Below are positions 17,461 through 36,388 of a stretch of DNA of 56,950 nucleotides, in pieces. This DNA is from Arenicellales bacterium (lineage in GTDB: Bacteria > Pseudomonadota > Gammaproteobacteria > BMS3Bbin11). Position numbers and translations under genes: made by a program. The DNA lies in assembly GCA_048550195.1 (NCBI GenBank), contig JBLYYR010000238.1:1-56950 (forward strand), in the 5' to 3' direction. Numbering within the stretch: the first letter of the stretch is position 1; each line of letters opens with the position of its first letter. The notes beneath the pieces were generated by a model, which saw only the letters and a program-made list of their open reading frames with translations, had not been told where the DNA came from and did no database searches.

Positions 17461-17481
17461 GCTTGCAATCTTCCTCCATCT

Positions 17482-19242: not shown

Positions 19243-19300
19243 TACTTTTTCGCATTTACAAACCTGTGGCAGTCTTAAGCCTGCCACGGGCTGCTACTCG

Positions 19301-21424
19301 TTAAAATTTATAGTTGAAACCCGCGTAGACGGCACGGGGCATGCCTGGCGCATATTCGAATTTTTCAGGGCCCCAGCCGGAAGGCGTATATTTCGCTGCC
19401 GTCGCATAACGTTCATCCGTAACATTCATCAGACGTCCATACAGTTCCAGCCCGTTATCGAAGGGGTAATTGACACGGAAATTCAGCAGGTCATAACCAT
19501 CATATTTATGCGTATTGGCCGCATCCATCCAGTATTCGCCCAGATGAGCCCACTCCAGCTCAAATCGCCCGCCATTCATGAATAGCGGGTGATAGTTGAG
19601 GCGCGTATTAGCCATATCTTTTGGTGCAAACTCGATCTCGTTGCCACTAAAATCTGTTCCTTTTTCGACCCAGTCTTCATAAGTCTGTTTGGTATAGGAG
19701 TAACTCACCGCCAGGCCCCAGTCTTTTGCAAATTCGGCATCAGCACCAAGCTCGATACCCTGGTGAAGAGTTTTACCTGCATTAACCGTGTAGCGGTCAC
19801 CGGTGACCGGGTCTTCAAAAGTCACCAGGTCATCTTTCTTGGGCATATAGTAAACCGACGCCTCGTAGTTGAAACGTTTTCCAGCCCGGCCGCGAATACC
19901 GACTTCATAGCTATCGGCCTCAACAGGTTTGAGTGCAAGGGTCTCATCTGCATCATTGCTACCCGGGCGGAATAGCTGCCCCTCAGAAGGTGCTCGAAAG
20001 GCGTTGCGGTAAGAGACGAATCCATTCAGATCATCTGAAAAAAGGTAGGTGGCCCCTAATTTTGGACTCAGGTGGGTGAAGTCCACCGTGGTATCCGATG
20101 CATGATCATAGTTCTTGCCGCCGACATTAATTACACCGTCTGTCATATTGTTAGCGTAGTCATATTCCATAAGGTCATAACGAAGCCCGGCATTGAGGCG
20201 CAGTCGTTCAGTGGGTGATGTCTCAAAGTGTAGATAAGGCGAGATGGCCAGGTACTCTACATCATAGTCATACGTCATCCCCTCTATGGTATAGGATGTG
20301 TAGATCAGGCCTTCCTTAACGGCATTTATTCTATTCTCCAGACGACTGCCGGGTGTGTAATCCAGATCCGCACCCACCACCAATCGAGTACGCTTCGGCG
20401 CAAAATCCTTGCGGTATTTCATCAGCATGCCAAGAGAGTTACTTGATGTTTCGGTAATGCCGGGATCGTAGCTTAGCGACCAGTTCGCCAGATACTCCAT
20501 ATTATTTTTTCTGGCATAAGGCGTTACGGTGAAAAGAGAGTCACTGCCCTCCTGTTCATATTCTGTTGAAAGTCGTACTGCGTCTACTTCACGATAGGAA
20601 ATGGGCGTATAGTTTTTCGTCGGATTGTTTTCGAAATCATACTTTAGCAGACGCGAAGACCCTGCAGTCTCCTGATCAATATTGGACATTGCAAGCACGG
20701 TTTTTAAACTGGCTCCATTATTGAAAAAATTGTCCATTCGTACTGTAGCACTCTGGCGGTCATAAGCCGTCTTTTCACGCCAGCCATCTGTATGGGTCAG
20801 GTTTAAATCACCACGAACACCATTATCATTCCAGGAGTTGCCCCCCGTTAACAACATTCGATACCAGCCGTATTCCCCCGCCTCGAGATTTAACTCGCCC
20901 TCTGCCTCAAGGGGTGCCGGTCGGGTCAGAACATTGATCACACCACCAATGGCATCACTGCCATAGAGTGCTGTACCAGGCCCCTTGGTGACTTCCACAC
21001 CACCTGCCTGGGGAACATTTATCTCGTACAATGCATTGTGATTGAAGAAGCCGGTTGAACGGGTCGGGATTCCGTCTTCCAGATAGAGATACACGGGTTT
21101 AGTTGTAATCGGTTGACGTATTGCAGTCATATGCCCTTCACCACCGGTAACATTTACGTGTACACCGGGGATGCGATTCATCAACTCTGAGGGATGTGCG
21201 GGCCGGACTTCTTCGATGGTTTCCCGGGCAATAACACCGGTTGTTTCTGATGTTTCTGCCCTCAGCTGCTCTTCCCTGGTTCCGGTAACCGTCATTTCAC
21301 CGAGTGAAAGGGTTTCTTCAGCTGCGAACGATATTGCCTGCCATGATGAAAGAGTCCCTATGATGGCTATAGAAAGAAACGGCCTGGAAAATGTTCTGGT
21401 AATAAATCTTTTTGACATGGACAT
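19301..21424 (-). CDS. TonB-dependent outer membrane receptor
   Basis: Signal peptide, TonB box EMTVTGT, plug motif EVTKGPGTALYGSDAIGGVIN and C-terminal YKF. Confidence 0.95.
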   Translation of the reverse strand: MSMSKRFITRTFSRPFLSIAIIGTLSSWQAISFAAEETLSLGEMTVTGTREEQLRAETSETTGVIARETIEEVRPAHPSELMNRIPGVHVNVTGGEGHMTAIRQPITTKPVYLYLEDGIPTRSTGFFNHNALYEINVPQAGGVEVTKGPGTALYGSDAIGGVINVLTRPAPLEAEGELNLEAGEYGWYRMLLTGGNSWNDNGVRGDLNLTHTDGWREKTAYDRQSATVRMDNFFNNGASLKTVLAMSNIDQETAGSSRLLKYDFENNPTKNYTPISYREVDAVRLSTEYEQEGSDSLFTVTPYARKNNMEYLANWSLSYDPGITETSSNSLGMLMKYRKDFAPKRTRLVVGADLDYTPGSRLENRINAVKEGLIYTSYTIEGMTYDYDVEYLAISPYLHFETSPTERLRLNAGLRYDLMEYDYANNMTDGVINVGGKNYDHASDTTVDFTHLSPKLGATYLFSDDLNGFVSYRNAFRAPSEGQLFRPGSNDADETLALKPVEADSYEVGIRGRAGKRFNYEASVYYMPKKDDLVTFEDPVTGDRYTVNAGKTLHQGIELGADAEFAKDWGLAVSYSYTKQTYEDWVEKGTDFSGNEIEFAPKDMANTRLNYHPLFMNGGRFELEWAHLGEYWMDAANTHKYDGYDLLNFRVNYPFDNGLELYGRLMNVTDERYATAAKYTPSGWGPEKFEYAPGMPRAVYAGFNYKF

Positions 21425-21755: not shown

Positions 21756-21785
21756 GTGACACAGTGTCGCGCGACAAATTGCCGC
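21756..21785. promoter_or_regulatory. Two abutting RegA/PrrA-type boxes
   Basis: GTGAC-ACAGT-GTCGC and GCGAC-AAATT-GCCGC match the GCGNC-N5-GNCGC consensus, directly upstream of regB. Confidence 0.75.
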
Positions 21786-21820
21786 AGCATGCCGGACACT
21801 GTTGCGTTTATACTACGTAT

Positions 21821-23098
21821 ATGAAAGATCTCAGCCAGACCAGTACGGATGCCACTTCAGCACTGAATCTTCGAAGACTATTTATCCTCAGGAACATAGC
21901 AATAAGCTTCGAGGTAATCGTGATTGTCCTGGCCTATTGGGTGTTGAACATACCGCTGCCGCTTTTGCCGTTATCGGTGATTATTGCGGTGCATGGGATG
22001 ATTAACAGTTTCACCTGGCTGCGCATGAAAAGGCCCGGTTCTGTTAGTTCATGGGAGTTTTTTAGCCAGCTGGTCATGGATTCAATGGTATTGGCCGCCC
22101 TGCTTTACTATACAGGCGGCTATACCAACCCCTTTGTTTCGCTATTTTTGTTGCCGCTGGTTACCGCTTCAACCCTGCTCCCGCAAGGCTATGCCTGGGC
22201 TATGGCGGCCATCACTACCAGCAGTTATACGCTGTTGATGTTTTTCTACCGTCCATTGCCACATAACAACATGGACCATACGGCAGATTTCAACCTGCAT
22301 GTACTGGGCATGTGGTTCGGCTTCCTGTTGAGTGCCGGGCTGATTGTTTTTTTCCTGGTACGCATGGCCAACAGCCTTCGAGAACGTGATCGCATCCTGA
22401 CTGCAACAAGAGAGAAGGCATTACGTGATCAGCACCTGGTTGCGCTTGGCACGCTGGCGACCGGCGCGGCCCACGAGCTCGGAACACCACTCACAACGAT
22501 GGCGGTTTTAGCCAGTGAACTAAAGCGTGAACACGCCGAGAATACTGATGTCGTTGAAAAAATGGATATGCTGCGCAGCCAGCTTGATCGCTGCAAACAT
22601 ATACTGTCTGACATCACTGCCAGCACCGGACAGGCCCGAGCAGAAGGCGGTCACGGACTGGCTGTAGATGACTATATAGAAGATGTGGTGGATGGGCTAA
22701 AAACCTTACGACCAACAGCAAAACTATCCTGTAAGGTGCATGGCCCTAAGCCTGCACCGCATATCCTTGCTGACAAAACACTGACTCAGGCATTGATCAA
22801 TGTACTCAACAACGCCGCCGATGCCTCTATCGATAACATTGACCTCGAAGTTACATGGAACAATGAGACCCTGAGTATTATAGTCGGTGACCGGGGTGAT
22901 GAAATCAGCCCGTCCATTCAGGCAGCCGCCGGCACACCATACTTTACCACCAAGCCTGATGGTCATGGCTTAGGGCTCTATCTGGCACATGCGGTGATAG
23001 AAAGTTTTGATGGGTCACTAAGCCTCGCCACGCGTGAAGGAGGTGGAGCGCAGGCTATCATTAAACTACCACTGTCCACCATCAGGGTTCCATCATGA
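21821..23098 (+). CDS. regB: RegB/PrrB redox sensor histidine kinase
   Basis: Quinone-binding motif GGYTNPF, H-box AAHELGTPL, redox Cys (DRCKHIL) and GHGLGL; ATG at 21821 preferred. Confidence 0.9.
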   Translation: MKDLSQTSTDATSALNLRRLFILRNIAISFEVIVIVLAYWVLNIPLPLLPLSVIIAVHGMINSFTWLRMKRPGSVSSWEFFSQLVMDSMVLAALLYYTGGYTNPFVSLFLLPLVTASTLLPQGYAWAMAAITTSSYTLLMFFYRPLPHNNMDHTADFNLHVLGMWFGFLLSAGLIVFFLVRMANSLRERDRILTATREKALRDQHLVALGTLATGAAHELGTPLTTMAVLASELKREHAENTDVVEKMDMLRSQLDRCKHILSDITASTGQARAEGGHGLAVDDYIEDVVDGLKTLRPTAKLSCKVHGPKPAPHILADKTLTQALINVLNNAADASIDNIDLEVTWNNETLSIIVGDRGDEISPSIQAAAGTPYFTTKPDGHGLGLYLAHAVIESFDGSLSLATREGGGAQAIIKLPLSTIRVPS

Positions 23099-23655
23099 CG
23101 ACACAAAATGTTGACAACACCCGCGACTTAGCAGACCTGCTATTGGTAGATGATGATGCAATGTATTGTCAGGTAATGGGACAGGCACTGGAAAAACGCG
23201 GTTTCAACGTACAGATCGCCCACAGTGTCGATGAAGCGATTTTATTAAGCGAGGAACAGGCACCGGAATACGCAGTCGTTGACCTGAATATGCCCGGCCC
23301 ATCGGGTCTGGTACTGGTCAAACACCTTATTGCTATCGACCCGCATACCCGCATCGTCATCCTCACCGGTTTTTCCAGTATCGCAACGGCCGTCGAAGCA
23401 ATCAAACTGGGAGCAGTGCATTACCTGTCAAAACCTGCCGACGCCGATGAAGTCATCGCCGCTTTTAATCGGGAAGAAGGCAGTACCGATGTCGAAGTTT
23501 CAATACAGCCTCTCTCAGTCAACCGCCTTGAATGGGAACACATTCAAAAAATATTAAATGACCATGATGGCAATATCTCCGCCACCGCCCGTGCCCTGAA
23601 TATGCATCGCAGGACACTGCAGCGGAAGTTACAGAAGCGACCCAGGAAAGATTGA
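23095..23655 (+). CDS. regA: RegA/PrrA response regulator
   Basis: Receiver domain plus LEWEHIQ...NISATARALNMHRRTLQRKL. Confidence 0.93.
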   Translation: MTTQNVDNTRDLADLLLVDDDAMYCQVMGQALEKRGFNVQIAHSVDEAILLSEEQAPEYAVVDLNMPGPSGLVLVKHLIAIDPHTRIVILTGFSSIATAVEAIKLGAVHYLSKPADADEVIAAFNREEGSTDVEVSIQPLSVNRLEWEHIQKILNDHDGNISATARALNMHRRTLQRKLQKRPRKD

Positions 23656-23778: not shown

Positions 23779-24789
23779 CTACGGCTGAAGACTGTTCAAT
23801 CCAACAAATGTCCCATCATTATTTTCTGCCAGTTTACGCATCAATGCAGCAAAGCGTACGACGTTGTTGCCTTTTCCTCCAGCACTGAACAACACTGGAA
23901 AACCGATTGCATGGATACGTACACGATGCTTACCGCTGCTGTCGGCCCGATTAAGACGATCAACGGTATTGACGACGTTTTCAATCGAACCGGATGAGAA
24001 GTCATCACCAAAAATATACAGACTGATACGTTTGTCCCTGGCATAAAAACGCCGGATAGCCGCCTCTATACCTTCCACCGGGCTGGAATTGGAAAATGGC
24101 GTCCAGCGTGCCAGCCGCTGATTGATGGCACTGCGGCGGGCGGGTGTATCCGGGATCCATTTTCCCTTGTAGGTCTCAAACATATACATCCCCATGTCAT
24201 TCATCACCTGTATACCTTTAACGCGGGGATAAACTTTTAGTACTTCATTCATTTTCCTGCGTACCAGTGACCAGGCAAACTGGTTCATCGAACCGGAAGT
24301 ATCGATGATGAAAATAATGTACTCGCTGTCAACCGGTATGCCACCGATACGGCTGTTATTCACTGTCGGTTTAACACTGCTTGCCTGCAGGCGGCGCATT
24401 TCCTCTGTCAGGCTTTGCTGAGCAGTTTGCAGACGCCCGGCAATTATTGCCTGTGCTTCGCTGTCAGTTTGCGCCCGGGCAAACTGTCCTTCGATAGTAG
24501 ATAGACTGCCTTTTAGCCTGGCCAGTTTTTCCCTGTTGCTGGACAGCTGCTCCTGTTTTTCGGTCAATTCACGATTCAGTACAATGGTTTCTCCGCGTAT
24601 TTTGAAAATCTCCTTTTGCAGTTTCATTACCTGGCCGGACAGGTCAACCGTTAAACTTTCAATGACACGTGGTTCACCTATTTTCACGATGACCAGCAGC
24701 AGTATGATTGCACCAAAGCCACAGGACACGACATCCAGAAAGGACAGATTAAAGATATCGACATCCCGCCGCCGTCTGCCCCTGCTCAT
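23779..24789 (-). CDS. ExbD-like TM + coiled coil + VWA domain protein
   Basis: N-terminal FNLSFLDVVSCGFGAIILLL, a heptad-rich stalk and the MIDAS motif DTSGS. Confidence 0.8.
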   Translation of the reverse strand: MSRGRRRRDVDIFNLSFLDVVSCGFGAIILLLVIVKIGEPRVIESLTVDLSGQVMKLQKEIFKIRGETIVLNRELTEKQEQLSSNREKLARLKGSLSTIEGQFARAQTDSEAQAIIAGRLQTAQQSLTEEMRRLQASSVKPTVNNSRIGGIPVDSEYIIFIIDTSGSMNQFAWSLVRRKMNEVLKVYPRVKGIQVMNDMGMYMFETYKGKWIPDTPARRSAINQRLARWTPFSNSSPVEGIEAAIRRFYARDKRISLYIFGDDFSSGSIENVVNTVDRLNRADSSGKHRVRIHAIGFPVLFSAGGKGNNVVRFAALMRKLAENNDGTFVGLNSLQP

Positions 24790-25877
24790 GGCCAGTCCCT
24801 TGCCGGTGTTAGAAAGGAGCCCCGTGTTTCCACGGCCAGCTGCCAGAAAGCCGCCGCTGCATAGGCATCGCCTTCCATCGGTAATAGTATAGTATTGACA
24901 GGAATAGAGGATGGCAGGACTTTCACGGCACGATCAAAATGTACCAGCCTTCGTTCACTCGTCACGGTCGTACGTGTCGGCGTTTTCTGCCCCTGAGTTG
25001 GCAAACCATCTGTGACCAACAGGATGTTGTCAGGCTTAGGCGTTAACAGGCTGGCTGTCTGGAATGCATGGTATAGACTGGTACCGCCTTCAGGAATGGC
25101 CTGGCGCAAACTCCTGACGGCATCAGCAACATTCTGCGGATCTGATGCCGATAACCAACCACCACCGGAAGTTGCCACTGCCGCACGAGAGCGGGTGTTG
25201 AATAAATAGACCTGAAATTTTGATGTGGTTGGCAGGTTGCTGATTAGCCATTCCGCTGTGCCCTGTGCCCGTCGCCATTTCTTTGCTGACATTTTTTGCT
25301 TATCACCCATATTGCGCAGCCGAATGATGTTGACAATGGTTTCATCCAGCATGCTTGCTGAGGTATCGAGTAATATAAGTATCCGCTTGCCGCCCAGCTT
25401 AAGCCCGGTCAGGTACTGCCGGTTACCTTCACCGGTAAATTTATGTACCTTTTGCCCCTTCTTCTGTGCCGCCTTTTGTTCGGCGCTGAGTTGCTGTGTT
25501 TTTTTATCCAGCCCCTTCAGGTCAGCTTTAAGTTTGTTGACATGTTCACGACTAGCCGTCGTTGTTCTGCGTAAATCCGTCAGACCTTCCTCAATCTCCA
25601 GCTTGCTCTGCTGGACACGTCTTGCCTCCCCCTGCATCAGAACAATCTCTTTGTCAGTCGCATCGAGACTGTTAACTGCCGCCACCTGATTCTCACGCCC
25701 GACGATGACCTCATTCTCCAGGCGCACCACCTCGGAACGCAGATCAGCAAAGGCCTCATTCCGCTCCTGCACCATATTGACATTCAATATCAACACCAGC
25801 AGAACCACGGCTCCAAATCCGCAGAACATGATGTCGAGGAATGACAGGGAGAATGGGGATACGGGACGGCGTTTCAT
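24786..25877 (-). CDS. ExbD-like TM + coiled coil + VWA domain protein (paralog)
   Basis: FSLSFLDIMFCGFGAVVLL, coiled coil, DTSAS, GGT and LVTDGLP motifs. Confidence 0.82.
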   Translation of the reverse strand: MKRRPVSPFSLSFLDIMFCGFGAVVLLVLILNVNMVQERNEAFADLRSEVVRLENEVIVGRENQVAAVNSLDATDKEIVLMQGEARRVQQSKLEIEEGLTDLRRTTTASREHVNKLKADLKGLDKKTQQLSAEQKAAQKKGQKVHKFTGEGNRQYLTGLKLGGKRILILLDTSASMLDETIVNIIRLRNMGDKQKMSAKKWRRAQGTAEWLISNLPTTSKFQVYLFNTRSRAAVATSGGGWLSASDPQNVADAVRSLRQAIPEGGTSLYHAFQTASLLTPKPDNILLVTDGLPTQGQKTPTRTTVTSERRLVHFDRAVKVLPSSIPVNTILLPMEGDAYAAAAFWQLAVETRGSFLTPARDWP

Positions 25878-25887
25878 TACATATGGT

Positions 25888-25944
25888 ATTACGTCTTACG
25901 TGTTACGTATTACGTAAAACCTAAATCGTAAAACGTAAAACATT
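25888..25944. repeat. Heptamer-arm inverted element (TTACGTN x4 / AAACGTA-like x4)
   Basis: 7-bp periodicity read directly; closely similar to 26780-26826. Confidence 0.75.
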
Positions 25945-25946
25945 GC

Positions 25947-26741
25947 TTAAGACCTCAGCTTCCTAACCAGCCAGTGATCTACATAGCGCTCACTATCCAG
26001 TACCAGCCGCTCCTGCAGGAGTTGCAGCTGATGAATGAAAAACATCAGGATGATACTGATGACCAGTGCAACGAAGGTTGAGTTGAAAGCTACGCCGAGG
26101 TTTTCTGTAACACCGGTGATGTCGCCTTCCACGGCACGATAGGCCTGGCCGAGCGCATCACCAATTCCACGTACTGTACCGATAAATCCCACCGAAGGAA
26201 TGGCCCAGGCGATATAGCGGATGATAGACAGCTCGGATTCCTGTCGTTCGCCTTCTGATTCACAGATATCCCGCACAGCGGTCGATACATCCTGTACGTT
26301 AAGGGTAGCACTGAAACGTTCGATACCTGTCAGCAGTGCACGTGGCAACAGATACTGCTGCTCCACCGATGGCAGGGCATGCAGCCGCTCAGCCAGTAGT
26401 CGGGTATCTTCCGGTCCGATAGGCAGCCCCTCCGGTAGTTGCAACAGATCATGCTCCAGAAGTTTATCCTGCCTCCAGACTGCCTGCCCCTTGTAAACCA
26501 GTATCAACAGGGCCCATACCATAAGGATGAAGCAGGTTTCCTGTTCATAGTCTTTGATGACAACAAAAAATGAGCTCTCGGCAATATAGCCCGGGTCAGC
26601 CGCCAGTGCAGCCGCCTGCTGCTGCATATGACTGGCCGCCGACGGACGAACCAGTGTGACATAAACGGTATGAACGATGATGAAGGAGATCAACAGGGCG
26701 AAGACCTGGAAAATGAATTCATTCGGGAAGATTTTTTTCAT
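25947..26741 (-). CDS. MotA/TolQ/ExbB proton channel family protein
   Basis: AIPSVGFIGTVRGI and LGVAFNSTFVALVISI motifs; multiple TM helices. Confidence 0.88.
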   Translation of the reverse strand: MKKIFPNEFIFQVFALLISFIIVHTVYVTLVRPSAASHMQQQAAALAADPGYIAESSFFVVIKDYEQETCFILMVWALLILVYKGQAVWRQDKLLEHDLLQLPEGLPIGPEDTRLLAERLHALPSVEQQYLLPRALLTGIERFSATLNVQDVSTAVRDICESEGERQESELSIIRYIAWAIPSVGFIGTVRGIGDALGQAYRAVEGDITGVTENLGVAFNSTFVALVISIILMFFIHQLQLLQERLVLDSERYVDHWLVRKLRS

Positions 26742-26779
26742 AATTTAAATATCGTCGTATATTTATGATGGTATATATC

Positions 26780-26826
26780 TTTCGTCAGTTCTTACGTAAC
26801 CCCTAATACATAAAACGTAATACATT
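26780..26826. repeat. Degenerate heptamer-arm element
   Basis: TTACGTAACCCCTAATACATAAAACGTAATACATTG aligns with TTACGTAAAACCTAAATCGTAAAACGTAAAACATTG at 25910-25945. Confidence 0.65.
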
Positions 26827-26828
26827 GT

Positions 26829-27059
26829 TCAAATATCTACCGGAAATGGCACTGTATCATCAGCGCGCAGTTTTTCGCTAGGCGTAAACCGGGTTGCCGG
26901 TTCATATTTCTTTTTAACAACGTCAGCCGATTTTTCTTTAACCGGCTCAACGACTTCCACAGGGGTTTTAGCGCGTGTATCAGAAGGCTGTGCCATGCCA
27001 GGTACAGCGGCAGACACCAAAAGCAGAGACAAAGCCAGTTGTAATATTTTATTTTCCAT
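26829..27059 (-). CDS. Small exported hypothetical protein
   Basis: Signal peptide and C-terminal FTPSEKLRADDTVPFPVDI; overlaps the upstream gene. Confidence 0.7.
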   Translation of the reverse strand: MENKILQLALSLLLVSAAVPGMAQPSDTRAKTPVEVVEPVKEKSADVVKKKYEPATRFTPSEKLRADDTVPFPVDI

Positions 27060-29463
27060 AACGTGCAATTCTAAAACCAAGATCGTAACGCGGTTTACTG
27101 CTGTAGTCGCGGTAGCTTAGGCGCAGTTCGGTAATATTGCCGTGCCGCCAGCTGGATCCGCGCACGACATGATGCTCACCCGATGCAGGACCAGCAGGAT
27201 CGGTAACCTGTTTTGTAGACTCGCCCGGATACACCGCATAGTAATCATGCATCCATTCAGCAACGTTGCCACCCAGATCAAAAAATCCTTTCGGCCGGGC
27301 CGGGAAACTGGCTACCGGTGCACTGCCGCGGAAACTGTCATCATAGCCCGGGACAACATCGGCAAGCGTATCGGCTATGCGGGCATCAGCAAAGTTACCT
27401 ACTTTTCCTGTTGGTGGGAAACTGCCATTCCAGGGGTAACGTTGTGCACTCTTCTGGTCCTGCATACGGGCAACCCAGGCCCACTCGGCTTCAGTCGGCA
27501 ACCGATAGCCGTCATTCACAGGTCGGACCGCCACCATTTTTTTATCTTTCTCGACATACGCCGGTGACAAACCCTGCTGCTTACTGAGCCAGTTAGTATA
27601 ACGGGCGGCGTCATCCCAACTGATATTGACCACCGGCTGCTCATCACCATTCAATGCCGCAGCGTCAAAATTTCCGGAATCATGTGTTTTATCAAAACGG
27701 CGATAGTCTCCATTTGTTACTTCTTTGCTCGATAAATAGAAGGGTCGCTGCAATTGCACCAGCCTCTGGCTCTCGTTCGCCCGGCGTCCCGCTTCACGGC
27801 GCGATGCACCCATCACAAAACTTCTTTGCGGGTGTATCCGTATTAACTGGTGACCCGCTATTGACGTCGTGGCAGTATCTGTCGAACTCTTTTTCTTTGC
27901 AGCCTGCTGTTTTGCAGTCTTTAAGCTGATCTGGACATTCTGGCCAGTTCCCGGCCGCGGTCTGATAGTCAATTTTTCAGAGATATAACCTGCTTTACTC
28001 ACAGCCAGGGTGTGCGGACGTGCTGCAAGACGCAGGCGTCCCTGATTCGTCTCAAGCTTTTTTCCATCAAGCAGTGTTGTCGCATCGGCAGGGCGTATTG
28101 TCAGGAATATCGTACCCACCTCGGCGGTCAGCGCCACATCAATTGTGCGTTCTTCATCCGGTTTCAGGTGGACTGATTTTTTCGCGGGAGCATAGCCCGC
28201 CTTGCTTAATTCCAGGTTATGTTCTGCATTTGCGGACAGCGTTAACTTCTTCGGCGTCGTACCAGAAAACTTCCCATCAACAACAATGCTTGCAGCCGAC
28301 GGAACGCTGCTGAGAACTAGCACACCATCTACCGGTTCCAGTTTAATATTATTCAGCGTGATATTTTTTCCTGCCTCCACGATTTGTTTGATTGAAAGAG
28401 TTTTGAACCCATCCTTCTTCAGCTGAATTTCATGACTGCCCTGCAATAGTTCTGTTTTCAGGGGTGTCTGCCCGAGTAACTTTCCCTTCATATAAACACC
28501 GGCAGATTCAGGCTCTGTGGTGATAAGGAACTCTGCCCAGGCAGGTTTTAAAGCAACAGCAAGCTGCTGAGTTTTCCCATAACCCTGAATATCCAGCTCC
28601 TGCTCCTCCGGCAGGTAACGTGCAGTAGTGATATGCAGTTTGTGCCTGCCGCGCTCGATCTCTGCCACTCCCTGCTGTGATATTTCTGTCTTAACGCCGT
28701 CAACACGCAGCTGCAAAGGGACTGCCGGTGTGCTTGTAATCGTCAGCAGACCGGGTAATTCCGTTAGTTCATACGACAATTCGAGCATCTCACCAATTTC
28801 AATATCAACGGGCTCATGCAGTGGATAGTAACCAGTTTCTGTCATTTCTATGGTGTATTGTCCGGGTAAGGCCAGTCTGGAATTCCACAGCGACAGTACT
28901 GGAGGAAAGCCTTTCATCTTCACCGCCGCTGTTTGCGGGTCTGTTCGAATCACCACCGGGGTAGCTATCAGCAGATAGCCGACAAGCAGAATTAACAGGG
29001 AAATAAAAGCAATGAAATACCGGTGTCGCTTTTTTCCATCACCCTGACCATGATCCTGTCTGTGTACCGGCAAATCATGATTGCCTGAGTACTGGTTATC
29101 AACAGATGGCGCAGAGGGTGGACGAGGAAAATGGTCCTCTGACTGCCCCTGAACATCAATTAGAACTTTGTCGCCCTGTACTAGCCAGTTAATCACTGAG
29201 CCGCCTATCTGTACCCGGTCACCGGATTTAAGCCAGACTGAATCTGTCAGTCGTTCATCATTATGAAACAGGCTGCTGCTATCACCCGCCGGCTGGATGT
29301 AGGCATGCCCATCCGACAGAGCAATGAAAGCAAACAAACGTTCATCTGCAACACCGGGGATAACAATGCCACCCTGTTCTTTGCCCCCTATGCGTAAAGG
29401 CAGGTCTGCTTCAGTGACTTGCCGTTCAGCAAGCGCATCCGTGATGAAGTATTCACGTTTCAA
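27049..29463 (-). CDS. FHA-like + TM + PEGA repeats + SUMF1/FGE-sulfatase domain protein
   Basis: LKSGDRVQIG (FHA-like), TM helix, PEGA motifs (TEPESAGVY..GQTP, SVPSAASIVVDG..GTTP), and SUMF1 motifs EVTN, PVVNISWDDA, RLPTEAEW, DLGGNVAEW, LGFR. Confidence 0.85.
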   Translation of the reverse strand: MKREYFITDALAERQVTEADLPLRIGGKEQGGIVIPGVADERLFAFIALSDGHAYIQPAGDSSSLFHNDERLTDSVWLKSGDRVQIGGSVINWLVQGDKVLIDVQGQSEDHFPRPPSAPSVDNQYSGNHDLPVHRQDHGQGDGKKRHRYFIAFISLLILLVGYLLIATPVVIRTDPQTAAVKMKGFPPVLSLWNSRLALPGQYTIEMTETGYYPLHEPVDIEIGEMLELSYELTELPGLLTITSTPAVPLQLRVDGVKTEISQQGVAEIERGRHKLHITTARYLPEEQELDIQGYGKTQQLAVALKPAWAEFLITTEPESAGVYMKGKLLGQTPLKTELLQGSHEIQLKKDGFKTLSIKQIVEAGKNITLNNIKLEPVDGVLVLSSVPSAASIVVDGKFSGTTPKKLTLSANAEHNLELSKAGYAPAKKSVHLKPDEERTIDVALTAEVGTIFLTIRPADATTLLDGKKLETNQGRLRLAARPHTLAVSKAGYISEKLTIRPRPGTGQNVQISLKTAKQQAAKKKSSTDTATTSIAGHQLIRIHPQRSFVMGASRREAGRRANESQRLVQLQRPFYLSSKEVTNGDYRRFDKTHDSGNFDAAALNGDEQPVVNISWDDAARYTNWLSKQQGLSPAYVEKDKKMVAVRPVNDGYRLPTEAEWAWVARMQDQKSAQRYPWNGSFPPTGKVGNFADARIADTLADVVPGYDDSFRGSAPVASFPARPKGFFDLGGNVAEWMHDYYAVYPGESTKQVTDPAGPASGEHHVVRGSSWRHGNITELRLSYRDYSSKPRYDLGFRIARYGK

Positions 29464-30926
29464 ATTAATTCCTCACAGCGTAACGTTACTGTATAGGATC
29501 CGGTCTCAGGGCTCAGCGTAATGATTTTACGTACATCACGGTAACCGGCACAGGAGCCCGACAGGGTGTAACGACCCGCTCGCAGCGTTAACTGCTTCTG
29601 CTGAAAGCGGCCGAGCCGTCCGACATGATAGATGCTTATGTCTGTCTGGCCATCAGAACGTATAAGCAATTCGACCGGTACCATGGCAAGCCGTACAGCT
29701 TCCTTTAAGCGAGAAATTTTGGCTGCAAGCCGCGGTTCGTTGTCTGCAATCTGTTTGTTTGCCTGCAATAGCGTCTGCGCATTGGCCAGTGGCTCGTCTG
29801 ATGAAAGACGCGTTGTATCGGCCAGATAGTGGTCTATCCGTGCATTCAACTGGCTCTGCTTTTGCGCATAAGACAAACCCTCCCGGGCAGCAAGAGAGCG
29901 TCCATCGATGGCCAGAGCTTTGCGGTACAGTGCTGCTGCAGCCGACCAGTCTTCGCTGCCTGCTCTCTGCTCCGCCTGCCTGCGCAGACTGGCAAGCCTG
30001 TGCCGACGTTGGGCCCCAACTAGCCGGCGCTGGCCATCTTTGACAGCATCTGACCCAGGATGAATTGCAGCCGCCGCCTGCAGGGCTTTTTCGGCAACAC
30101 CGAGATTTCCTCGGTTGAGATTGTGCAGGGCCTCGCTCATAGCCTGTTTAAAGGCATTTTCAGTAAGCGAGATGTTGATTCTTTTTACTGCGTCCTGTGC
30201 CGGTTCATAAGAGGAATCAAGCCGCAGTGCAGCATTATAGGCTTCAGCGGCAGACATTGGCCTGTTCATTGCTTCAGCCTGACTGCCCGTCAGCATCAAC
30301 TGAAGAATTTCTTTTCGCACATTGGCACGCACCAGTCCCGTGCCGGCCTGTTCATGATCCGGCTGCATGGCAAGTGCACGCTGAAAGGCAGAAACAGCTG
30401 TCGCCACTTCATTCTGCTGCAGAGACTGCCAGCCTTCTGCAAGTGTTGCTGACAATCGATCAGGCCTGCCATCGAGTAAAGTCTGCAACTGTTGCGTGGC
30501 TTTTTTATAAGCGGCCAGGGCCTCGGTGAAATGGCCACGTCCATACAGCCCGTCTCCCTCTAAAGCTGTTTTCAAAGCAAGCTGCCAGTCTTCAGCTGCC
30601 CAGAATTCTGCATTGGCAAAATCTGGCTGCGCACGCAGGCGGAGGAAATCTTTAAGTGCCTGCTCGGCATCATTACGTACTACACCTACTGCCAGGGCCG
30701 GCGGTTGCACGCCCTGAACAGGTTTCGCTGCATGTGTGGTTTCCTCAGCCGAACGCTCAGAAACCAGGAAAGGTAACACCACAAGCACCACCAGCGTTAA
30801 AGCAGCAACGAAACCGAACAGTGCCCATACCATGTGATGAATATTATTTTGCCCGGTATCGACTGCATTTTTTTTCCCATTAGAAACAGGCGGCCGCAAA
30901 CCCGGCGGGCGAAGTTCATGCGGCAT
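29460..30926 (-). CDS. Membrane-anchored TPR protein with a C-terminal PEGA-like domain
   Basis: TM helix, TPR-like AYxxAL motifs and LRAGRYTL..CAGYRD. Confidence 0.75.
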   Translation of the reverse strand: MPHELRPPGLRPPVSNGKKNAVDTGQNNIHHMVWALFGFVAALTLVVLVVLPFLVSERSAEETTHAAKPVQGVQPPALAVGVVRNDAEQALKDFLRLRAQPDFANAEFWAAEDWQLALKTALEGDGLYGRGHFTEALAAYKKATQQLQTLLDGRPDRLSATLAEGWQSLQQNEVATAVSAFQRALAMQPDHEQAGTGLVRANVRKEILQLMLTGSQAEAMNRPMSAAEAYNAALRLDSSYEPAQDAVKRINISLTENAFKQAMSEALHNLNRGNLGVAEKALQAAAAIHPGSDAVKDGQRRLVGAQRRHRLASLRRQAEQRAGSEDWSAAAALYRKALAIDGRSLAAREGLSYAQKQSQLNARIDHYLADTTRLSSDEPLANAQTLLQANKQIADNEPRLAAKISRLKEAVRLAMVPVELLIRSDGQTDISIYHVGRLGRFQQKQLTLRAGRYTLSGSCAGYRDVRKIITLSPETGSYTVTLRCEELI

Positions 30927-32150
30927 TTATTCAGCCACGCCTGTACTGCTGGAAACGGGTGCGAGGCCGGTTTCCGAGGCATATATCTTTCGCATTATAT
31001 CCCGCCACTGCTCGTATTGTGCTTCGGCCGTACCGGTCAATTCACGCGCTTCTCCATCCACTTCAACAACCATCGGTTTCGCTTCGCTGCTGAATGACTC
31101 ACCCAGTTCTTCAATGGCTGCCTGATAGATCGTGCTTTGTGCATTGGTGTCCATACCCTTTTTAATCGAATACAGGCCGCCGATCACCATCACATCGCGT
31201 ACGGTACCGGTAGAAACGGTGGTATCGCTGCCCCCGAGGGCTTCAATGGCAATAGCGCCGAGTATTGCAGCAACACCCAGCGCCTTCTGGGTATTGGCCT
31301 TTCTTTTTATCTCCCGCAGGGCAGCGGCTTCTGTACTGCGAGCCTTGCGCCATTCCAGATAGGGCGGCGCCATTTCCCGATTGAAATTCTCAAAATGGCC
31401 GTTCAGGGTATCGACAAACAGGAAATCACGTTCCCGCACCAGCCGCACGCGCTGAATGGCAGGGTCATCTTCGGCCGGCAGTTTAAGCAGCGTATACCTG
31501 TCTTTATCATCCTTGCCAAGATAACCAGAAAAGGCATCTGGCACCATATCAATCGCAAAACGCATCTCAGCGATCTGCCGAATTTTGGTGCGTTCAGCAT
31601 CTGTCAGTGAATCACGAAACTTTGCCAGATCATTGGCTATAGCATGATACAGCGCGTCAAAGCTATCTGACGATGCCTGACTGCTGGTATAGTCAGCGGC
31701 TTCAACCTTTGCCTTATATATTTTCCCGAACCACTCTCGCCCACTGGCATCCAGTGCCGTCACCTCCAGCTTCAGTTCCTCGCCGGTGGAACTCACGATA
31801 GTGCCACGGACCAGTAACTCGGCACCTTCAGTATTTTTGGGTACTACCCGCACTGCCCCCCAATAACCGGTCTTTTCCATCACACCGCGTAAATAAAAAG
31901 GAATGTAATATGCCTCGGCTTTACGTATATCCAGTGACAAGCCACGCGCATCGTCTTTATCCTTCGGCAATTCACCCGGCTCAAACAGCTCAATCCAGAC
32001 ATCCAGCAGCTGATCTTCAGCCAGCTCCTGACTGACCTTTTGCAGCACTTCATCCTGTTTGGCAGTTCTCTGTCCGCCGGAAGTTGCACAGCCCGCGAGC
32101 AGGCCCAGCTGGAAAAACAACAGAATTATAATTTTAAATGCTTTATTCAT
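30927..32150 (-). CDS. Conserved-type hypothetical lipoprotein
   Basis: Lipobox LLAG-C after the ATG at 32150; internal hydrophobic Gly/Ala helix pair. Confidence 0.75.
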   Translation of the reverse strand: MNKAFKIIILLFFQLGLLAGCATSGGQRTAKQDEVLQKVSQELAEDQLLDVWIELFEPGELPKDKDDARGLSLDIRKAEAYYIPFYLRGVMEKTGYWGAVRVVPKNTEGAELLVRGTIVSSTGEELKLEVTALDASGREWFGKIYKAKVEAADYTSSQASSDSFDALYHAIANDLAKFRDSLTDAERTKIRQIAEMRFAIDMVPDAFSGYLGKDDKDRYTLLKLPAEDDPAIQRVRLVRERDFLFVDTLNGHFENFNREMAPPYLEWRKARSTEAAALREIKRKANTQKALGVAAILGAIAIEALGGSDTTVSTGTVRDVMVIGGLYSIKKGMDTNAQSTIYQAAIEELGESFSSEAKPMVVEVDGEARELTGTAEAQYEQWRDIMRKIYASETGLAPVSSSTGVAE

Positions 32151-32154
32151 CCTT

Positions 32155-32940
32155 TTAACGACTGCCTGATTTATACCGCCGGTATTCATCCCATAGCTTC
32201 TTCTTCAGTTCCGGGTCAGTTTCTTTTTCTGCCGCTTCGCGCAACTGCCGCGCTACAACATCATCATTCCTGCCATCAGGTATATCTTTTGGCGCTGTGC
32301 TTTTATGTTCAGAAGAGGATTTGGACGGTGCACCCGATTCACTGTCTGCGGGTTGCCTGTCCTGTTCTGTCTGTTTATCACCCGCTTTCTTCTGTCCACT
32401 ATCATCTGTAGCATTCCCTTCTTCAGCTTCATCGCCATCACTGCCGCCGCCGGCAGAGTCACCCGCAGCGCCAGTTTCAGCTGCAGGCCTTTTCGATTTA
32501 ACCCGATCCTGCTCTCTTAGCAGGCGCTCATCAAATTCGCCGAGAGAACCGTTAAGCTGCTCGATCATGCGGTCCGTTTTTTCCTGTCCGGTGCTTTCGC
32601 TTTTAATATCGATGTCAGCCGGCACGGAATAACCGGCTAAAATCTTTTCACAGGGAGGATCCACAGGCAGGCTTACTGTCGACCGGGCAGATACAGCCAG
32701 GCAATTTTCCGCCACTCGATCTTCCAGTTGTCTGATCCAGATTTTAAAATCAGCCTTCTCCCTATCAGAAAGGCCGCCACCTTTCAGCGCTTGATCAAAT
32801 TCTTTTTTTACCTGATTTAAACTTGAATAATCTTCTCGTAGCAATTGCAGTTCCTGTGTTACAGGCAATGCGGCACAGCCCTGTGCAGCAATTAATGCGG
32901 GTAACAGGAGAATTAGGTATTTTATTGAGGGTAAACGCAT
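32155..32940 (-). CDS. Hypothetical lipoprotein with a low-complexity linker and helical C-terminus
   Basis: AAQG-C lipobox after the ATG at 32940; C-terminal DDVVARQLREAAEKETDPELKKKLWDEYRRYK. Confidence 0.7.
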   Translation of the reverse strand: MRLPSIKYLILLLPALIAAQGCAALPVTQELQLLREDYSSLNQVKKEFDQALKGGGLSDREKADFKIWIRQLEDRVAENCLAVSARSTVSLPVDPPCEKILAGYSVPADIDIKSESTGQEKTDRMIEQLNGSLGEFDERLLREQDRVKSKRPAAETGAAGDSAGGGSDGDEAEEGNATDDSGQKKAGDKQTEQDRQPADSESGAPSKSSSEHKSTAPKDIPDGRNDDVVARQLREAAEKETDPELKKKLWDEYRRYKSGSR

Positions 32941-33816: not shown

Positions 33817-36060
33817 CTACTGTTTGTCGCCCAGACCGATATATTCAAAAAATGGATCCAGTGAACGCTCACGCTCGAGAAAGGTGTTTATTGATTCATC
33901 GATTTCCCGAGAGCCGCCTTTTGCATAGATTTCATCGCGTAAGCGTATGCCGACTTCTTTGTCCATCAAACCTCCTGGACTTTTTTCGAACACCGAGGCC
34001 AGGTCTGCCGAGATGGCTTCTGCCCAGGCGTAGCCGTAGTACCCGGCATCATAGCCTCCGCCAAGATGACCGAAGGAGGCAACAAATGCGGTGTCTATTG
34101 GCGGGGCCAGATAGACTTCAGTCATGATGTCATTACTGACTTTGACAAAATCATCAAAATCTTTCTGGTCAGTGCTCATGTGCAACTTCAGATCCAGCAT
34201 ACCAAAGGAAAGCTGGCGCCGGTACCAGGTGCCGATGGTTGCCAACCTGGCTGCTTCCATCTTATCCAGCGTATCGGCAGGAATTTTCCTGTTCGGGTCA
34301 CGATAATCTACCGCAAAACGGTCTAGCACATCTTTATCCCAGACCCAGTTTTCCAGCATCTGTGACGGCGCCTCAACAAAATCCCGCGGCACCGAGGTGC
34401 CGGAAAATGAGGCGTACCTTGTCTGTGTTAGCACAGAATGCAAAGCATGGCCGAATTCATGAAAAAGCGTCTCCACGTCACTGTGCTTCAGCAATGAAGG
34501 CCTGTCTTCTGTTGCTGGTGGAAAATTACATATCAGGGCCACCACCGGGCGCTGGTAAACACCATCATTAAGAAGTTTGCCGGTAGTCACGCCAAACTGG
34601 GCAAAATGCCCGTATTTGTTCTCTCGCGGAAATAGATCCATGTAGATCAGACCCAGCGGATCACCGGTAACGGCATCTGTCACGGCATACAGCCGCAGGT
34701 CATCAACCCATTTATAACCAGGTTCGACTGCCGCAATCCTGAGGCTGAATATCTCTTCAAAAATACTGAACATGCCCTCTAATACACTGTCCAGTTCAAA
34801 AAAGACTTTTAATTTACTGGTATCGACCTGGTATTCGGTCTTCTTCAATATATTTTTGTAATAACGCATATCCCACAGCATTATCTTTGCATCAGGGTTT
34901 CCAGTCTCGTCAGCCTTCAACTTCTGCAACTGGGCCATTTCTTCATCGAACTTCGGCTGCAGCCCCTGCACCAGACGCTGTTCAAAATCAAAAGCCGTTT
35001 TTGCATTTTTTGCCATTTTTGGTTCGATGCGATAATCCGCCCAGCTGTCATAACCCAGCAGCTCGGCAATCTGCGCGCGGGTTTTCAGCATTTTTGTGAA
35101 CAGCGGAATATTTTTTTCCTTCGCCCGATTTGATCGTATCGTCACCAGTTTTTTGCGTGTCTCTTCGCTGCTGGCATTCTGCATCACAGCAATGTACTGC
35201 CAACTGACATTGGCTTTTACATTGTACGTCCCTTTAACCGTTTTCAATTCCTTGTTACTGAGAAAATCTTCCGGCATACCGGCCAGTTCATCCGCCGTAA
35301 ATTCAACGGTTACTTTGGCATCTGTGATATTAGTAGCGAATTCCAGACTCATATTGTTCAGCTCAGTTTTCAACTCTTTGAGCTGCTGGCGTTTTTCGTC
35401 TGGCAGGGCCATACCATTGCGACGATAGTCACGCAGGGTTTCCTTAAACAACATGGCATCTTCAGCTTCAAGCTCAGGCCGGGTTTCCGCATAAGCGGCT
35501 ACTGTCTTATAGACATCCTCCCTGAATCCTGCCGCCACATACCAGGCCTGAATCTTCTTACTGGCCTGCAGCGCCTTATCCCGCATCGCCGCGTCCTGAC
35601 TGGTTTCTCTGATGACATCAACACGATCACTGACATTGAGAACCTGGTAGAAGGCATCATCCAGAGCGGCAATGGTGTTAGCGAAGTCACTTGCCTCCAG
35701 CGACAGTGCAGCAATGGCATCCAGCTGTTTATCGCCTGCTGCAATCGCAGCAGTAACAGAAGCATCGATTTCAGCAGGCGTTTGCTCCCAAACCGGCAAC
35801 TCAAACAGCACCTTTGCCTTTTCTGCAGCTGGTTGAAAGGTAGATAGCGCAGAAAGTTCTGTACCGGAGCCCTCTTCATTCAGTTGGAGCTTACCGGTCG
35901 GCTGTGTGGCTAGACGAGCAGCATTCGATTCAACTTTAGACACAGAATCGTCTGTAGATCCCCCCTGGCCACAGGCAGGCAATATAGAAATCAGGAATAA
36001 GACTGACAAAACTGTCAGGAATCGATGATGTGTGTTACTGAAAGATTTAGTTCTGGTCAT
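33817..36060 (-). CDS. M3 family (thimet/oligopeptidase) metallopeptidase, probable lipoprotein
   Basis: FHEFGH, RDFVEAPSQMLE and YDAGYYGY motifs; ILPA-C lipobox after the ATG at 36060. Confidence 0.9.
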   Translation of the reverse strand: MTRTKSFSNTHHRFLTVLSVLFLISILPACGQGGSTDDSVSKVESNAARLATQPTGKLQLNEEGSGTELSALSTFQPAAEKAKVLFELPVWEQTPAEIDASVTAAIAAGDKQLDAIAALSLEASDFANTIAALDDAFYQVLNVSDRVDVIRETSQDAAMRDKALQASKKIQAWYVAAGFREDVYKTVAAYAETRPELEAEDAMLFKETLRDYRRNGMALPDEKRQQLKELKTELNNMSLEFATNITDAKVTVEFTADELAGMPEDFLSNKELKTVKGTYNVKANVSWQYIAVMQNASSEETRKKLVTIRSNRAKEKNIPLFTKMLKTRAQIAELLGYDSWADYRIEPKMAKNAKTAFDFEQRLVQGLQPKFDEEMAQLQKLKADETGNPDAKIMLWDMRYYKNILKKTEYQVDTSKLKVFFELDSVLEGMFSIFEEIFSLRIAAVEPGYKWVDDLRLYAVTDAVTGDPLGLIYMDLFPRENKYGHFAQFGVTTGKLLNDGVYQRPVVALICNFPPATEDRPSLLKHSDVETLFHEFGHALHSVLTQTRYASFSGTSVPRDFVEAPSQMLENWVWDKDVLDRFAVDYRDPNRKIPADTLDKMEAARLATIGTWYRRQLSFGMLDLKLHMSTDQKDFDDFVKVSNDIMTEVYLAPPIDTAFVASFGHLGGGYDAGYYGYAWAEAISADLASVFEKSPGGLMDKEVGIRLRDEIYAKGGSREIDESINTFLERERSLDPFFEYIGLGDKQ

Positions 36061-36072
36061 GAAGGATACCTG

Positions 36073-36156
36073 GGTCTTTGGTCTTTGGTCTTTGGTCTTT
36101 GGTCTTTGGTCTTTGGTCTTTGGTCTTTGGTCTTTGGTCTTTGGTCTTTGGTCTTT
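36073..36156. repeat. Perfect heptamer tandem repeat (GGTCTTT)x12
   Basis: Counted directly; ends 12 nt upstream of the peptidase ATG. Confidence 0.97.
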
Positions 36157-36177
36157 GGTTTTGAAATTGACCTCAAA

Positions 36178-36388
36178 ATCCCGTTCAGGCTTGCCGAGAA
36201 TCGCAGGATGACCTGGGGTAGTCGGGATGTGCTGTCTGAGCGCAGCGAGTTTCACATCCCGCCAGATCATTCGAGCATCGCAGGGAACCCATAATGATTT
36301 TTATTATGGGCAAGCATGCGGGGGTCCTTTCTTTTGGTTACTTTTATTTAGACAAGTAAAGAAAAGTCACTCGCCCATAAAGGGCGAA
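36178..36388. other. Multi-hairpin structured intergenic element (ncRNA or dispersed repeat)
   Basis: Nested stems GCTTGCC/GGCAAGC, CGGGATGTG/CACATCCCG, CCCATAAT/ATTATGGG, ACTTTT/AAAAGT and TCGCCC/GGGCGA. Confidence 0.6.

Follow-up and report, generated by a model that had tools for sequence, protein, structure and literature searches.

Motors of the MotA/ExbB/TolQ kind are built from pentamers that enclose two Asp-bearing helices within a ring of Thr residues, and are driven by proton flow (PMC12204202). The closest described relative of the system considered here is the TPH-vWA class, a computational prediction illustrated by AlphaFold3 (AF3) models (Mol Biol Evol 2025;42:msaf138, PMC12204202, section 8, Fig. 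4c-d). According to that section, the proteins of this class co-occur tightly with tolQ homologues in the absence of tolR/exbD, form heterologous pairs and carry a conserved Asp, and in the AF3 models, which are 5:2 assemblies, they are joined to TolQ-like pentamers with the Asp helices lying within the Thr ring. The class starts from an Idiomarina seed, is found mainly in Proteobacteria and Verrucomicrobia, and is given there as of unknown function (PMC12204202). Here we analyse an operon at positions 23779-32940 of a contig from an Arenicellales bacterium (GenBank assembly GCA_048550195.1, contig JBLYYR010000238.1), the whole 56,950 nucleotides of which are referred to as the window. In the order of transcription its eight genes are called g1, g2, g3, g4, gS, g5, g6, and g7.

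The operon shares with the TPH-vWA class a TolQ/MotA-family gene (g5) adjoining a heterologous pair of genes for transmembrane (TM) vWA proteins (g6 and g7), the lack of tolR, exbD, and motB, the Asp in the trans-pore helix, and the two channel Thr residues, the assignment of the pore lining being taken from PMC12204202. Matched by these described sequence features, the window is a member of this motor class. A preliminary description, made from the letters of the window alone, had presented the operon as an undescribed system. This can no longer be said of its motor core, which was predicted computationally in PMC12204202. The match to the published class is a partial one, however, as the account, itself computational only, covers three genes and, in section 8 and the legend of Fig. 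4, does not mention the other five, namely those for the FGE/PEGA protein g4, the TPR protein g3, the lipoproteins g1 and g2, and gS, nor the FHA module. No paper on these accessory genes was found in the literature searches, and a paper on MotAB evolution (PMC12505986) does not mention vWA domains. New with respect to this section and legend are the short and long forms of the operon, the split and fused arrangement of its FHA module, the conserved tails of gS and g1, and the fold of g2.

We regard it as rather probable that the operon encodes a Tol/Ton-like, trans-envelope force transducer that is driven by the proton-motive force. The preliminary description had arrived at an ion-driven motor with vWA-tipped partners in an envelope scaffold, and the invariant Asp, Thr, and metal-site residues, together with the co-occurrence of the genes, are consistent with such a machine.

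Motor core and gene order

The product of g5 matches PF01618 (MotA_ExbB) with an E-value of 2.4e-14 (53.6 bits; cut-off 22.9). Its four hydrophobic segments, as judged by hydropathy, have a MotA-like topology, and it is presumed to be the pentamer-forming subunit. An alignment of 37 orthologues reveals that T189 and T222 as well as the stretches WAIPSxGFxGTVRGIG and GVAFNST are invariant, and both Thr residues correspond by alignment to GT and TT motifs in the ExbB that is encoded elsewhere in the window. With a mean column identity of 66%, g5 is the best-conserved gene of the set. It had been described as the only MotA/TolQ/ExbB subunit in the operon and as lacking a normal ExbD, TolR, or MotB partner; accordingly, none of the eight proteins matches any of these three in Pfam or NCBIfam at E<=0.1. 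The same threshold gave no match of g6 or g7 to the periplasmic domain of ExbD/TolR (PF02472), in place of which both have a coiled coil and a vWA domain.

In the g6 protein, a trans-pore helix that bears Asp15 (SFLDIM) is followed by about 110 residues of coiled coil and by a vWA head that is recognized by Pfam above the cut-off (VWA_2, 1.9e-8) and contains a full metal-ion-dependent adhesion site (MIDAS) motif (D171, S173, S175, T266, and D290). Its paralog g7, 30% identical to it over residues 2-186 (E 5.4e-11), has a corresponding trans-pore helix with Asp19 (SFLDVV) and a head with D163, S165, and S167; the DxSxS motifs of the two paralogs read DTSAS and DTSGS. As the Pfam VWA match of g7 stays below the cut-off (0.003), its assignment as a vWA protein stands by virtue of an AlphaFold2 model, computed with 52 orthologues, and the structural matches of this model. 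It comprises a TM helix (17-37), two further helices (44-106 and 110-138), and an alpha/beta domain (157-330; predicted local distance difference test score, pLDDT, about 90), and it obtained 274 Foldseek matches in the PDB at E<=1e-3, the foremost being to integrin I-domains, a bacterial vWA protein, ITIH1, and BatB.

The Asp in the TM helix is invariant in all 52 orthologues of g6 and likewise in all 52 of g7, and so are the D-x-S-x-S of the MIDAS and one later Asp; the MIDAS Thr of g6 is conserved in at least 90% of the 52 sequences. The two Asp-bearing TM motifs and the intact DxSxS, which had first been pointed out in the translations of the window, thus apply to both families of orthologues. 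The comparison drawn at that time with the ExbD at 16410 also holds, this gene (16410-16826) encoding the stretch LTPLIDIV. Among 23 diverse members of the wider family, both window paralogs included, the TM-helix Asp is again without exception. By alignment, all residues needed for a proton motor are therefore invariant in g5, g6, and g7.

The association of the genes was followed in a species-level scan with one genome per species, in which relatives were detected in at least 600 genomes and from which the best 80 loci were taken; synteny was counted by BLAST of the window proteins against all open reading frames (ORFs) of these loci. Both g6 and g7 occur in 80/80 loci, and g5 accompanies g6 in 78/80. 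Where at least 2.8 kb of upstream sequence is available, g4 is present in 59 of 60 loci. Of the 49 loci that extend 7.3 kb or more upstream, 47 contain g1-g4 complete, the two exceptions having either g3 and g4 only (L023) or none of the four (L096). The neighborhood survey that the preliminary description had called for thus ties g1-g4 to the motor genes. Gene order is nearly constant; a deviating metagenome-assembled genome (MAG) of the Myxococcales (L025) has g5, an additional gene X (see below), g6, and g7 on one strand and g4-g3-g2-g1 directly downstream on the opposite strand. The g6 family itself is large, with 6476 matches at E<=1e-3 among 8000 candidates scored; in a library clustered at 50% identity, 1383, 772, and 296 clusters were matched at E-values of up to 1e-3, 1e-10, and 1e-30, respectively.

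The ORF listing (Table 1) bears out eight co-oriented genes that overlap or abut, seven of them large and the eighth being the small gS. The pairs g6/g7 and g3/g4 overlap by 4 nt, g2 and g3 abut, and the start of gS overlaps the end of g4 by 11 nt, while spacers of 87 and 69 nt separate gS from g5 and g5 from g6. For g1, position 32940 is an in-frame ATG that opens MRLPSIKY...AAQGC. The start of g2 is likely the ATG at 32150, which is the residue where the record in the ESM Atlas begins. A scan for promoters and terminators found 14 promoter-like sites against 16.0 expected and hence is of no help in setting the limits of the operon.

Table 1. Genes of the operon, with their positions in the window and assignments
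Gene	Position	Strand	Assignment (basis)
g1	32155-32940 (open frame to 32976)	-	lipoprotein, lipobox AAQGC (translation)
g2	30927-32150 (open frame to 32189)	-	lipoprotein, lipobox LLAGC (translation)
g3	29460-30926	-	inner-membrane-anchored TPR protein (Pfam, hydropathy)
g4	27049-29463	-	FHA-like / TM / PEGA / predicted non-catalytic FGE-sulfatase (Pfam)
gS	26829-27059	-	76-aa secreted protein, predicted signal peptide
g5	25947-26741	-	MotA/TolQ/ExbB-family channel subunit (Pfam PF01618)
g6	24786-25877	-	TM Asp helix, coiled coil, vWA (Pfam VWA_2)
g7	23779-24789	-	g6 paralog: TM Asp helix, coiled coil, vWA (model and Foldseek)

Accessory proteins and the FHA module

The largest accessory protein, g4, has a cytoplasmic FHA-like domain ahead of its TM helix (150-168) and, beyond it, some five PEGA repeats that lead up to an FGE-sulfatase domain (548-801). 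Of the three domains that the preliminary description had assigned to this protein, PEGA (1.2e-31) and FGE-sulfatase (PF03781, 5.4e-37; there called SUMF1) are matched above the Pfam cut-offs. The FHA domain is no more than FHA-like: at 19.4-20.3 bits it stays short of the cut-off (20.7), and the Arg of the GR dyad is missing; among the N-termini of 11 orthologues of the g4 type FHA was matched in four, all below the cut-off. In a profile search of the PDB the FGE domain of g4 matches human FGE (5.7e-29) and PorK (7e-26). Human FGE possesses a pair of cysteines that form a copper site (PMC5324649). At the two columns of these catalytic residues g4 has R and I/T, and judged by these replacements its FGE domain is non-catalytic, as had been proposed at the outset.

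The operon exists in two forms. The long form (68 of 77 loci) has, between g5 and g6, a further gene of some 1.3 kb that is designated X (at 8678-9976 of locus L073), whereas in the short form g5 adjoins g6 directly, as observed in 9/77 loci and in the window. The product of X is faintly Hsp70-like at its N-terminus and has at its C-terminus an FHA domain, which is recognized by Pfam in 7 of 38 members (best E-value 4.8e-13) and whose profile matches the FHA domains of EssC, KIF13B, TB39.8, and Ki-67 in the PDB. With queries from L073, several further genes of the long form were traced: an upstream TPR gene (TPR0; 39/80 loci), a gene for an M48-type peptidase (44/80), and the small downstream genes Y1 and Y2 (59/80 and 49/80), which encode proteins of 228 and 235 aa without Pfam families. 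TPR0, X, Y1, and Y2 have no match in the genome to which the window belongs, which is 95.7% complete (tblastn, E<=1e-3; for X also a genome search); homologues of the M48-type peptidase are present elsewhere in that genome. The short-form loci have nothing in common beyond the eight genes, and the window consequently represents a self-contained minimal version.

The two forms also differ in g4. Its FHA-like N-terminal extension is present in all six short-form loci in which g4 is complete, as opposed to three of 54 long-form loci. This split of the FHA module in one form and its fusion in the other is, at the level of domain content, a Rosetta-stone pattern, which implies that the machine includes a cytoplasmic FHA module acting where g4 faces the cytoplasm. 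The link between the FHA domains of g4 and X relies on profiles, because pairwise BLAST of the g4 N-terminus against X detected no similarity (E 0.53).

The TPR protein and the two lipoproteins that the preliminary description had listed were recovered as g3, which has TPR matches, and as g1 and g2, which have lipoboxes. g3 contains a TM helix (37-55) and matches TPR_1 (1.4e-8) and TPR_2 (1.9e-8). Its C-terminal 89 aa form a small beta domain, for which PEGA and CarboxypepD_reg were matched in 3 and 5 of 10 orthologues, respectively, all below the cut-off.

No Pfam family matches g2, and the ESM Atlas contains it in unnamed clusters only. The AlphaFold2 model of this protein (pLDDT 84.8, predicted template modeling score 0.80) was compared with known structures by VIA-align. 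Residues ~40-200 resemble the LPHT ring (8z5n, Z 10.3), a DUF330 lipoprotein (Z 9.7), PelC (Z 9.4; root mean square deviation 2.5 over 112 residues), the N-terminal domain of TolB (Z 8.9), and the curli complex 6lqh (Z 8.8), with lower structural scores for PqiC, LptE, and TraT; Foldseek additionally lists FlgT (3w1e, 2.6e-4). As Z-scores of 7-8 are common for unmatched models, this resemblance is a fold-level lead and not a family assignment, and in this sense the model suggests that g2 contains an alpha/beta domain of the PelC/FlgT/TolB-N/CsgG/LptE type. Several of the outer-membrane lipoprotein folds that g2 resembles have been solved as rings, among them the PelC dodecamer, the TraT decamer, and the flagellar LPHT ring. 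Beyond this domain, g2 continues as a long hairpin of helices, the tip of which is a hydrophobic segment rich in Gly and Ala (303-321, from hydropathy).

In the small protein gS, a signal peptide (cleavage at about GMA/QP) is followed by a low-complexity linker and by the motif RFTPSEKLRADDTVPFPVDI-COOH at the C-terminus. Between g4 and g5, 72 of 77 loci have an ORF that ends in PxDI-stop; in four of the five misses the DNA does not extend upstream of g5, and the remaining one reads ...SFPVDIQDP. This positional conservation identifies gS as a real gene. Within the family the linker varies in length and composition and the tail alone is fixed, with the consensus [FY]x[PAS][ST]Ex[ILV]SxDxxVxFPVDI-COOH in the 72 loci, in which [FY] occurs 71 times, [ST] 67, E 67, S 59, D 69, V 59, and F 65 times, the final P, D, and I having been part of the search pattern. 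The tail is a specific one: an end of the type [FYL]PxDI is found in 74 of the 13,028 ORF segments of the 80 loci, and in the genome of the window, among ORFs of at least 40 aa, [FY]P[VIST]DI terminates only gS and one probably spurious ORF. With a profile of the gS family, 4065 of 7863 candidate proteins were matched at E<=1e-3; the 120 matches listed are, where a name is given, called 'hypothetical' or 'uncharacterized protein' throughout, and all are without a Pfam domain. A natural fusion of g4 and gS was looked for and not found.

The lipoprotein g1 is helical in its N-terminal part, continues with a long, acidic linker of low complexity, and has the conserved motif DDVVARQLREAAEKETDPELKKKLWDEYRRYK at its C-terminus; its sole Pfam match is DUF6381, below the cut-off (0.0028). 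BLAST detects g1 in 51/80 loci, and its tail is kept in 52 loci as PxDIPxGxDDDVVARQLREAA...DPELRxKLWxEYRKYK. g1 and gS are thus, as far as can be read from their sequences, of like design, with a variable linker and a strongly conserved tail, and with g1 being lipid-anchored.

Hosts and genomic surroundings

Hosts of the operon are Gammaproteobacteria of many orders, Desulfuromonadales, Myxococcales, Vicinamibacteria, and Rhodothermales; cultured carriers include Congregibacter variabilis, Microbulbifer agarilyticus, Kineobactrum sediminis, and Pseudoalteromonas denitrificans. Two MAG records are labeled Klebsiella pneumoniae (L038) and Enterobacteriaceae (L069). Their operon proteins are closest to those of marine Gammaproteobacteria, so that the labels look like binning or naming errors. 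In a MAG labeled as an uncultured delta proteobacterium (L086, 1047-9409), g1, g2, g5, g6, and g7 are each present in two ORF pieces, which reflects either decay of the operon or frameshift errors in the assembly.

The genes that flank the operon in the window encode a SIMPL protein, an M3 peptidase, a histidine kinase, and a response regulator. Only one match to them was obtained in the 80 loci (in L054, with a query from the upstream flank), and it lies far from the operon; as they are not conserved beside it, they are not part of the system. The kinase, which is PilS-like, and the Fis-type response regulator (21764-23655, plus strand) converge on the end of g7 and are not kept beside the operon in any of the 80 loci. 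The ORF of the M3 peptidase (33817-36270, minus strand) begins with four in-frame copies of KTKDQRP, encoded by a 21-nt tandem repeat at about 36060-36200, and these precede a lipoprotein-like signal (...ILPACGQ). Its annotated start is probably too far upstream, with the repeat belonging to the 5' leader.

About 7 kb from the operon, at 15664-21424 on the minus strand, the window contains a separate, ordinary Ton cluster with genes for a TonB-dependent receptor, a BNR-repeat protein, a thioredoxin-like protein, ExbB, ExbD (16410-16826), and TonB. A 150-aa ORF on the plus strand (16393-16845) is an antisense shadow of exbD and has no Pfam family.

Proposed mechanism and comparison with known machines

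In the force transducer that we favor, five copies of g5 would surround one g6 and one g7, whose N-terminal helices would provide the proton-binding Asp residues and thereby replace TolR, ExbD, or MotB. Proton flow would then turn or cycle a heterodimeric g6-g7 axle. In each axle subunit the Asp helix runs on directly into a coiled coil of about 95-110 residues, which is followed by the vWA head. As stalk and head are continuous with the Asp helix, the inner stator subunits themselves would be the force transducer, comparable to TolR and TolA in one chain. The coiled coil may carry both vWA heads across the periplasm, where they would meet an assembly close to the outer membrane that is formed by the tip of g4 (PEGA stalk and FGE domain), g3, g1, and g2. 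The FHA-like domain of g4, or the separate Hsp70-like/FHA protein X of the long form, could gate the machine or report its state. Its likely role is to use proton power to pull on the outer membrane or to probe it, in the service of envelope maintenance or the sensing of damage; a dedicated function in secretion or defence is less likely.

TonB and TolA heads grip short 'box' peptides, and the MIDAS sites of vWA domains bind an acidic side chain of their ligand. In a similar manner, the heads of g6 and g7 probably grip an acidic short linear motif via the MIDAS metal. Candidate ligands are the tails of gS ([FY]xP[ST]E..D...FPVDI-COOH) and g1 (DDVVARQLREAA...KLWDEYRKYK), which are obvious choices because they are the only conserved parts of these two proteins. 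By analogy with the box peptides we propose them as vWA ligands with considerable reserve. A complex prediction with segments of g6 (150-363), g7 (140-336), g4 (530-804), and gS (42-76) is uninformative on any pair, as an unrelated-protein control for the FGE domain scored equally high. The most far-reaching version of the model, namely that the operon stands beside TonB and TolA as a third kind of transducer that spans the periplasm and grips the 'box' tails of gS and g1 with its vWA heads to power an outer-membrane process in hundreds of marine and soil species, is conceivable, but we would not yet expect it to hold in full. To our knowledge, only a handful of machines pass proton energy from inner to outer membrane, namely Ton, Tol, the flagellar stators, type IX secretion and gliding, and Agl-Glt. 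The operon, if the proposal is true, would add one more to these few, and its compact, self-contained eight-gene form and the two conserved tail motifs offer concrete handles for experiments.

Several observations weigh against this proposal. Firstly, no gene for an outer-membrane beta-barrel, an ATPase, a kinase, or an obvious cargo was detected within the operon. Secondly, g5 reaches only 20.9 bits with the TolQ equivalog model, the cut-off of which is 221. Thirdly, those five of the 23 family representatives that are most distant have lost the MIDAS Asp, and metal-dependent binding is consequently not universal in the wider family. Fourthly, the FHA-like domain of g4 scores below the Pfam cut-off and has a conserved Gly followed by varied residues in place of Arg. 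This Arg of the GR dyad is one of the residues that we take to be canonical for the binding of phosphothreonine, which makes such binding by g4 doubtful. Finally, the distribution is patchy: within the genus to which the window belongs, 7 of 10 other species have the operon, as do 3/30 further genomes of the class and 11/401 sampled genomes of the phylum, and it must thus be dispensable for many relatives.

Two known systems show that a protein of the FGE fold can be the working counterpart of a motor axle or of a vWA domain, and from these the two main alternatives derive. In the type IX secretion system, PorLM motors work with the PorKN 'cogwheel' ring, in which PorK has the FGE fold (PMC12365241). 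In the H1 type VI secretion system (T6SS) of P. aeruginosa, the periplasmic domain of PpkA is a single vWA domain (PMC3224232), and a model based on AF3 and mutants places the FGE domain of TagR on it (PMC13713981). Loop mutants abolish T6SS dueling, and the complex of TagQ and TagR forms on membrane damage, while the TagR-PpkA complex was not conclusively detected according to the same source (PMC13713981).

The operon could accordingly encode a sensor of envelope damage, in which g1 and g2 would show the FGE head of g4 to the vWA domains of g6 and g7 when the outer membrane is perturbed, the FHA-like module would relay the signal to the cytoplasm, and g5 would be a scaffold or a gate that does no mechanical work. 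As in TagQ/TagR/PpkA/Fha1, an outer-membrane lipoprotein occurs together with a periplasmic protein of the FGE fold, a vWA domain that an inner-membrane protein exposes to the periplasm, and an FHA domain, and four Hanks-type kinases are encoded elsewhere in the genome of the window. However, g6 and g7 contain no kinase domain, and the operon in the window has neither a kinase nor a phosphatase gene and also lacks the TagST ABC transporter and T6SS genes. Furthermore, in contrast to PpkA, its vWA proteins bear a stator-type Asp helix beside a MotA-like channel; the invariance of this Asp and of both Thr residues is hard to explain for a passive scaffold, and the FHA-like domain is devoid of the canonical Arg. 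We therefore consider such a sensor unlikely.

Even less probable, in our view, is a type-IX-like system for secretion or surface transport, in which the motor would drive a periplasmic ring of g4 and g2, and gS would be a cargo or, through its tail, a cargo adaptor. In common with PorLM/GldLM and PorKN/GldKN the operon has a presumed 5:2-type motor, a long axle provided by an inner subunit that would span the periplasm, and an FGE fold without catalysis that matches PorK/GldK structures (7e-26) and the NCBIfam model of GldK (TIGR03525, 3e-26). The fold of g2 is akin to that of outer-membrane lipoproteins, several of them solved as rings, and the fixed C-terminus of gS would be in line with a cargo tag. 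The GldK match, however, amounts to 92.7 bits and is far below the equivalog cut-off of 350, and g4 is anchored by a TM helix instead of a lipobox and carries PEGA repeats and the FHA-like domain. Within the operon no homologues of GldL/M/N, of the translocon (SprA/Sov), or of an outer-membrane barrel were detected, no variable cargo genes stand beside it in the 80 loci, and the hosts are not specific to the Bacteroidota.

Very improbable is a vWA/TPR complex like that of BatA-D, or a static adhesion scaffold, with the MotA-like gene as a passenger. The TM-anchored vWA paralogs do adjoin a TPR protein, g3 has a faint match to BatC (2.6e-4; 20.5 bits, cut-off 175), and the head of g7 resembles BatB (3ibs, E 9.8e-6). 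Against this stand the lack of any AAA/MoxR ATPase or DUF58 match within the operon (Pfam and NCBIfam) and the status of the supposed passenger, as g5 is present with g6 in 78/80 loci, is the most conserved gene, and is paired with an invariant TM Asp. An anti-phage defence of the Zorya kind, in which a MotA/MotB-like motor would sense a breach of the envelope, has the poorest prospects of all, for although a presumed 5:2-type stator with an unusual partner, the patchy distribution, and a weak match to ZorA2 in PADLOC (E 0.0044, 14.1 bits) speak for it, PADLOC otherwise returned coiled-coil noise for the seven large proteins (gS left out), no nuclease, helicase, or other effector gene is present, the coiled coil is periplasmic and not cytoplasmic, the flanks are of housekeeping type (M3 peptidase, SSB, UvrA), and the gene order is fixed across phyla.

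The force transducer driven by the proton-motive force thus remains our preferred reading, and its nearest functional counterparts would be Tol-Pal (TolQRA, TolB, Pal, and CpoB) and Ton (ExbBD-TonB). The operon differs from both in that it has no separate TolR/ExbD or TolA/TonB, the Asp-bearing subunit presumably acting as the transducer itself, in that its heads are vWA domains and not TonB_C or TolA-III, and in that its channel subunit has four instead of three hydrophobic segments. What it shares with them is a stator of the same superfamily that would use the proton-motive force, an elongated periplasmic transducer ending in a globular head, an outer-membrane lipoprotein, a TPR protein, a g2 protein similar to the N-terminal domain of TolB, and, in the tails of gS and g1, candidate 'box'-like peptides.

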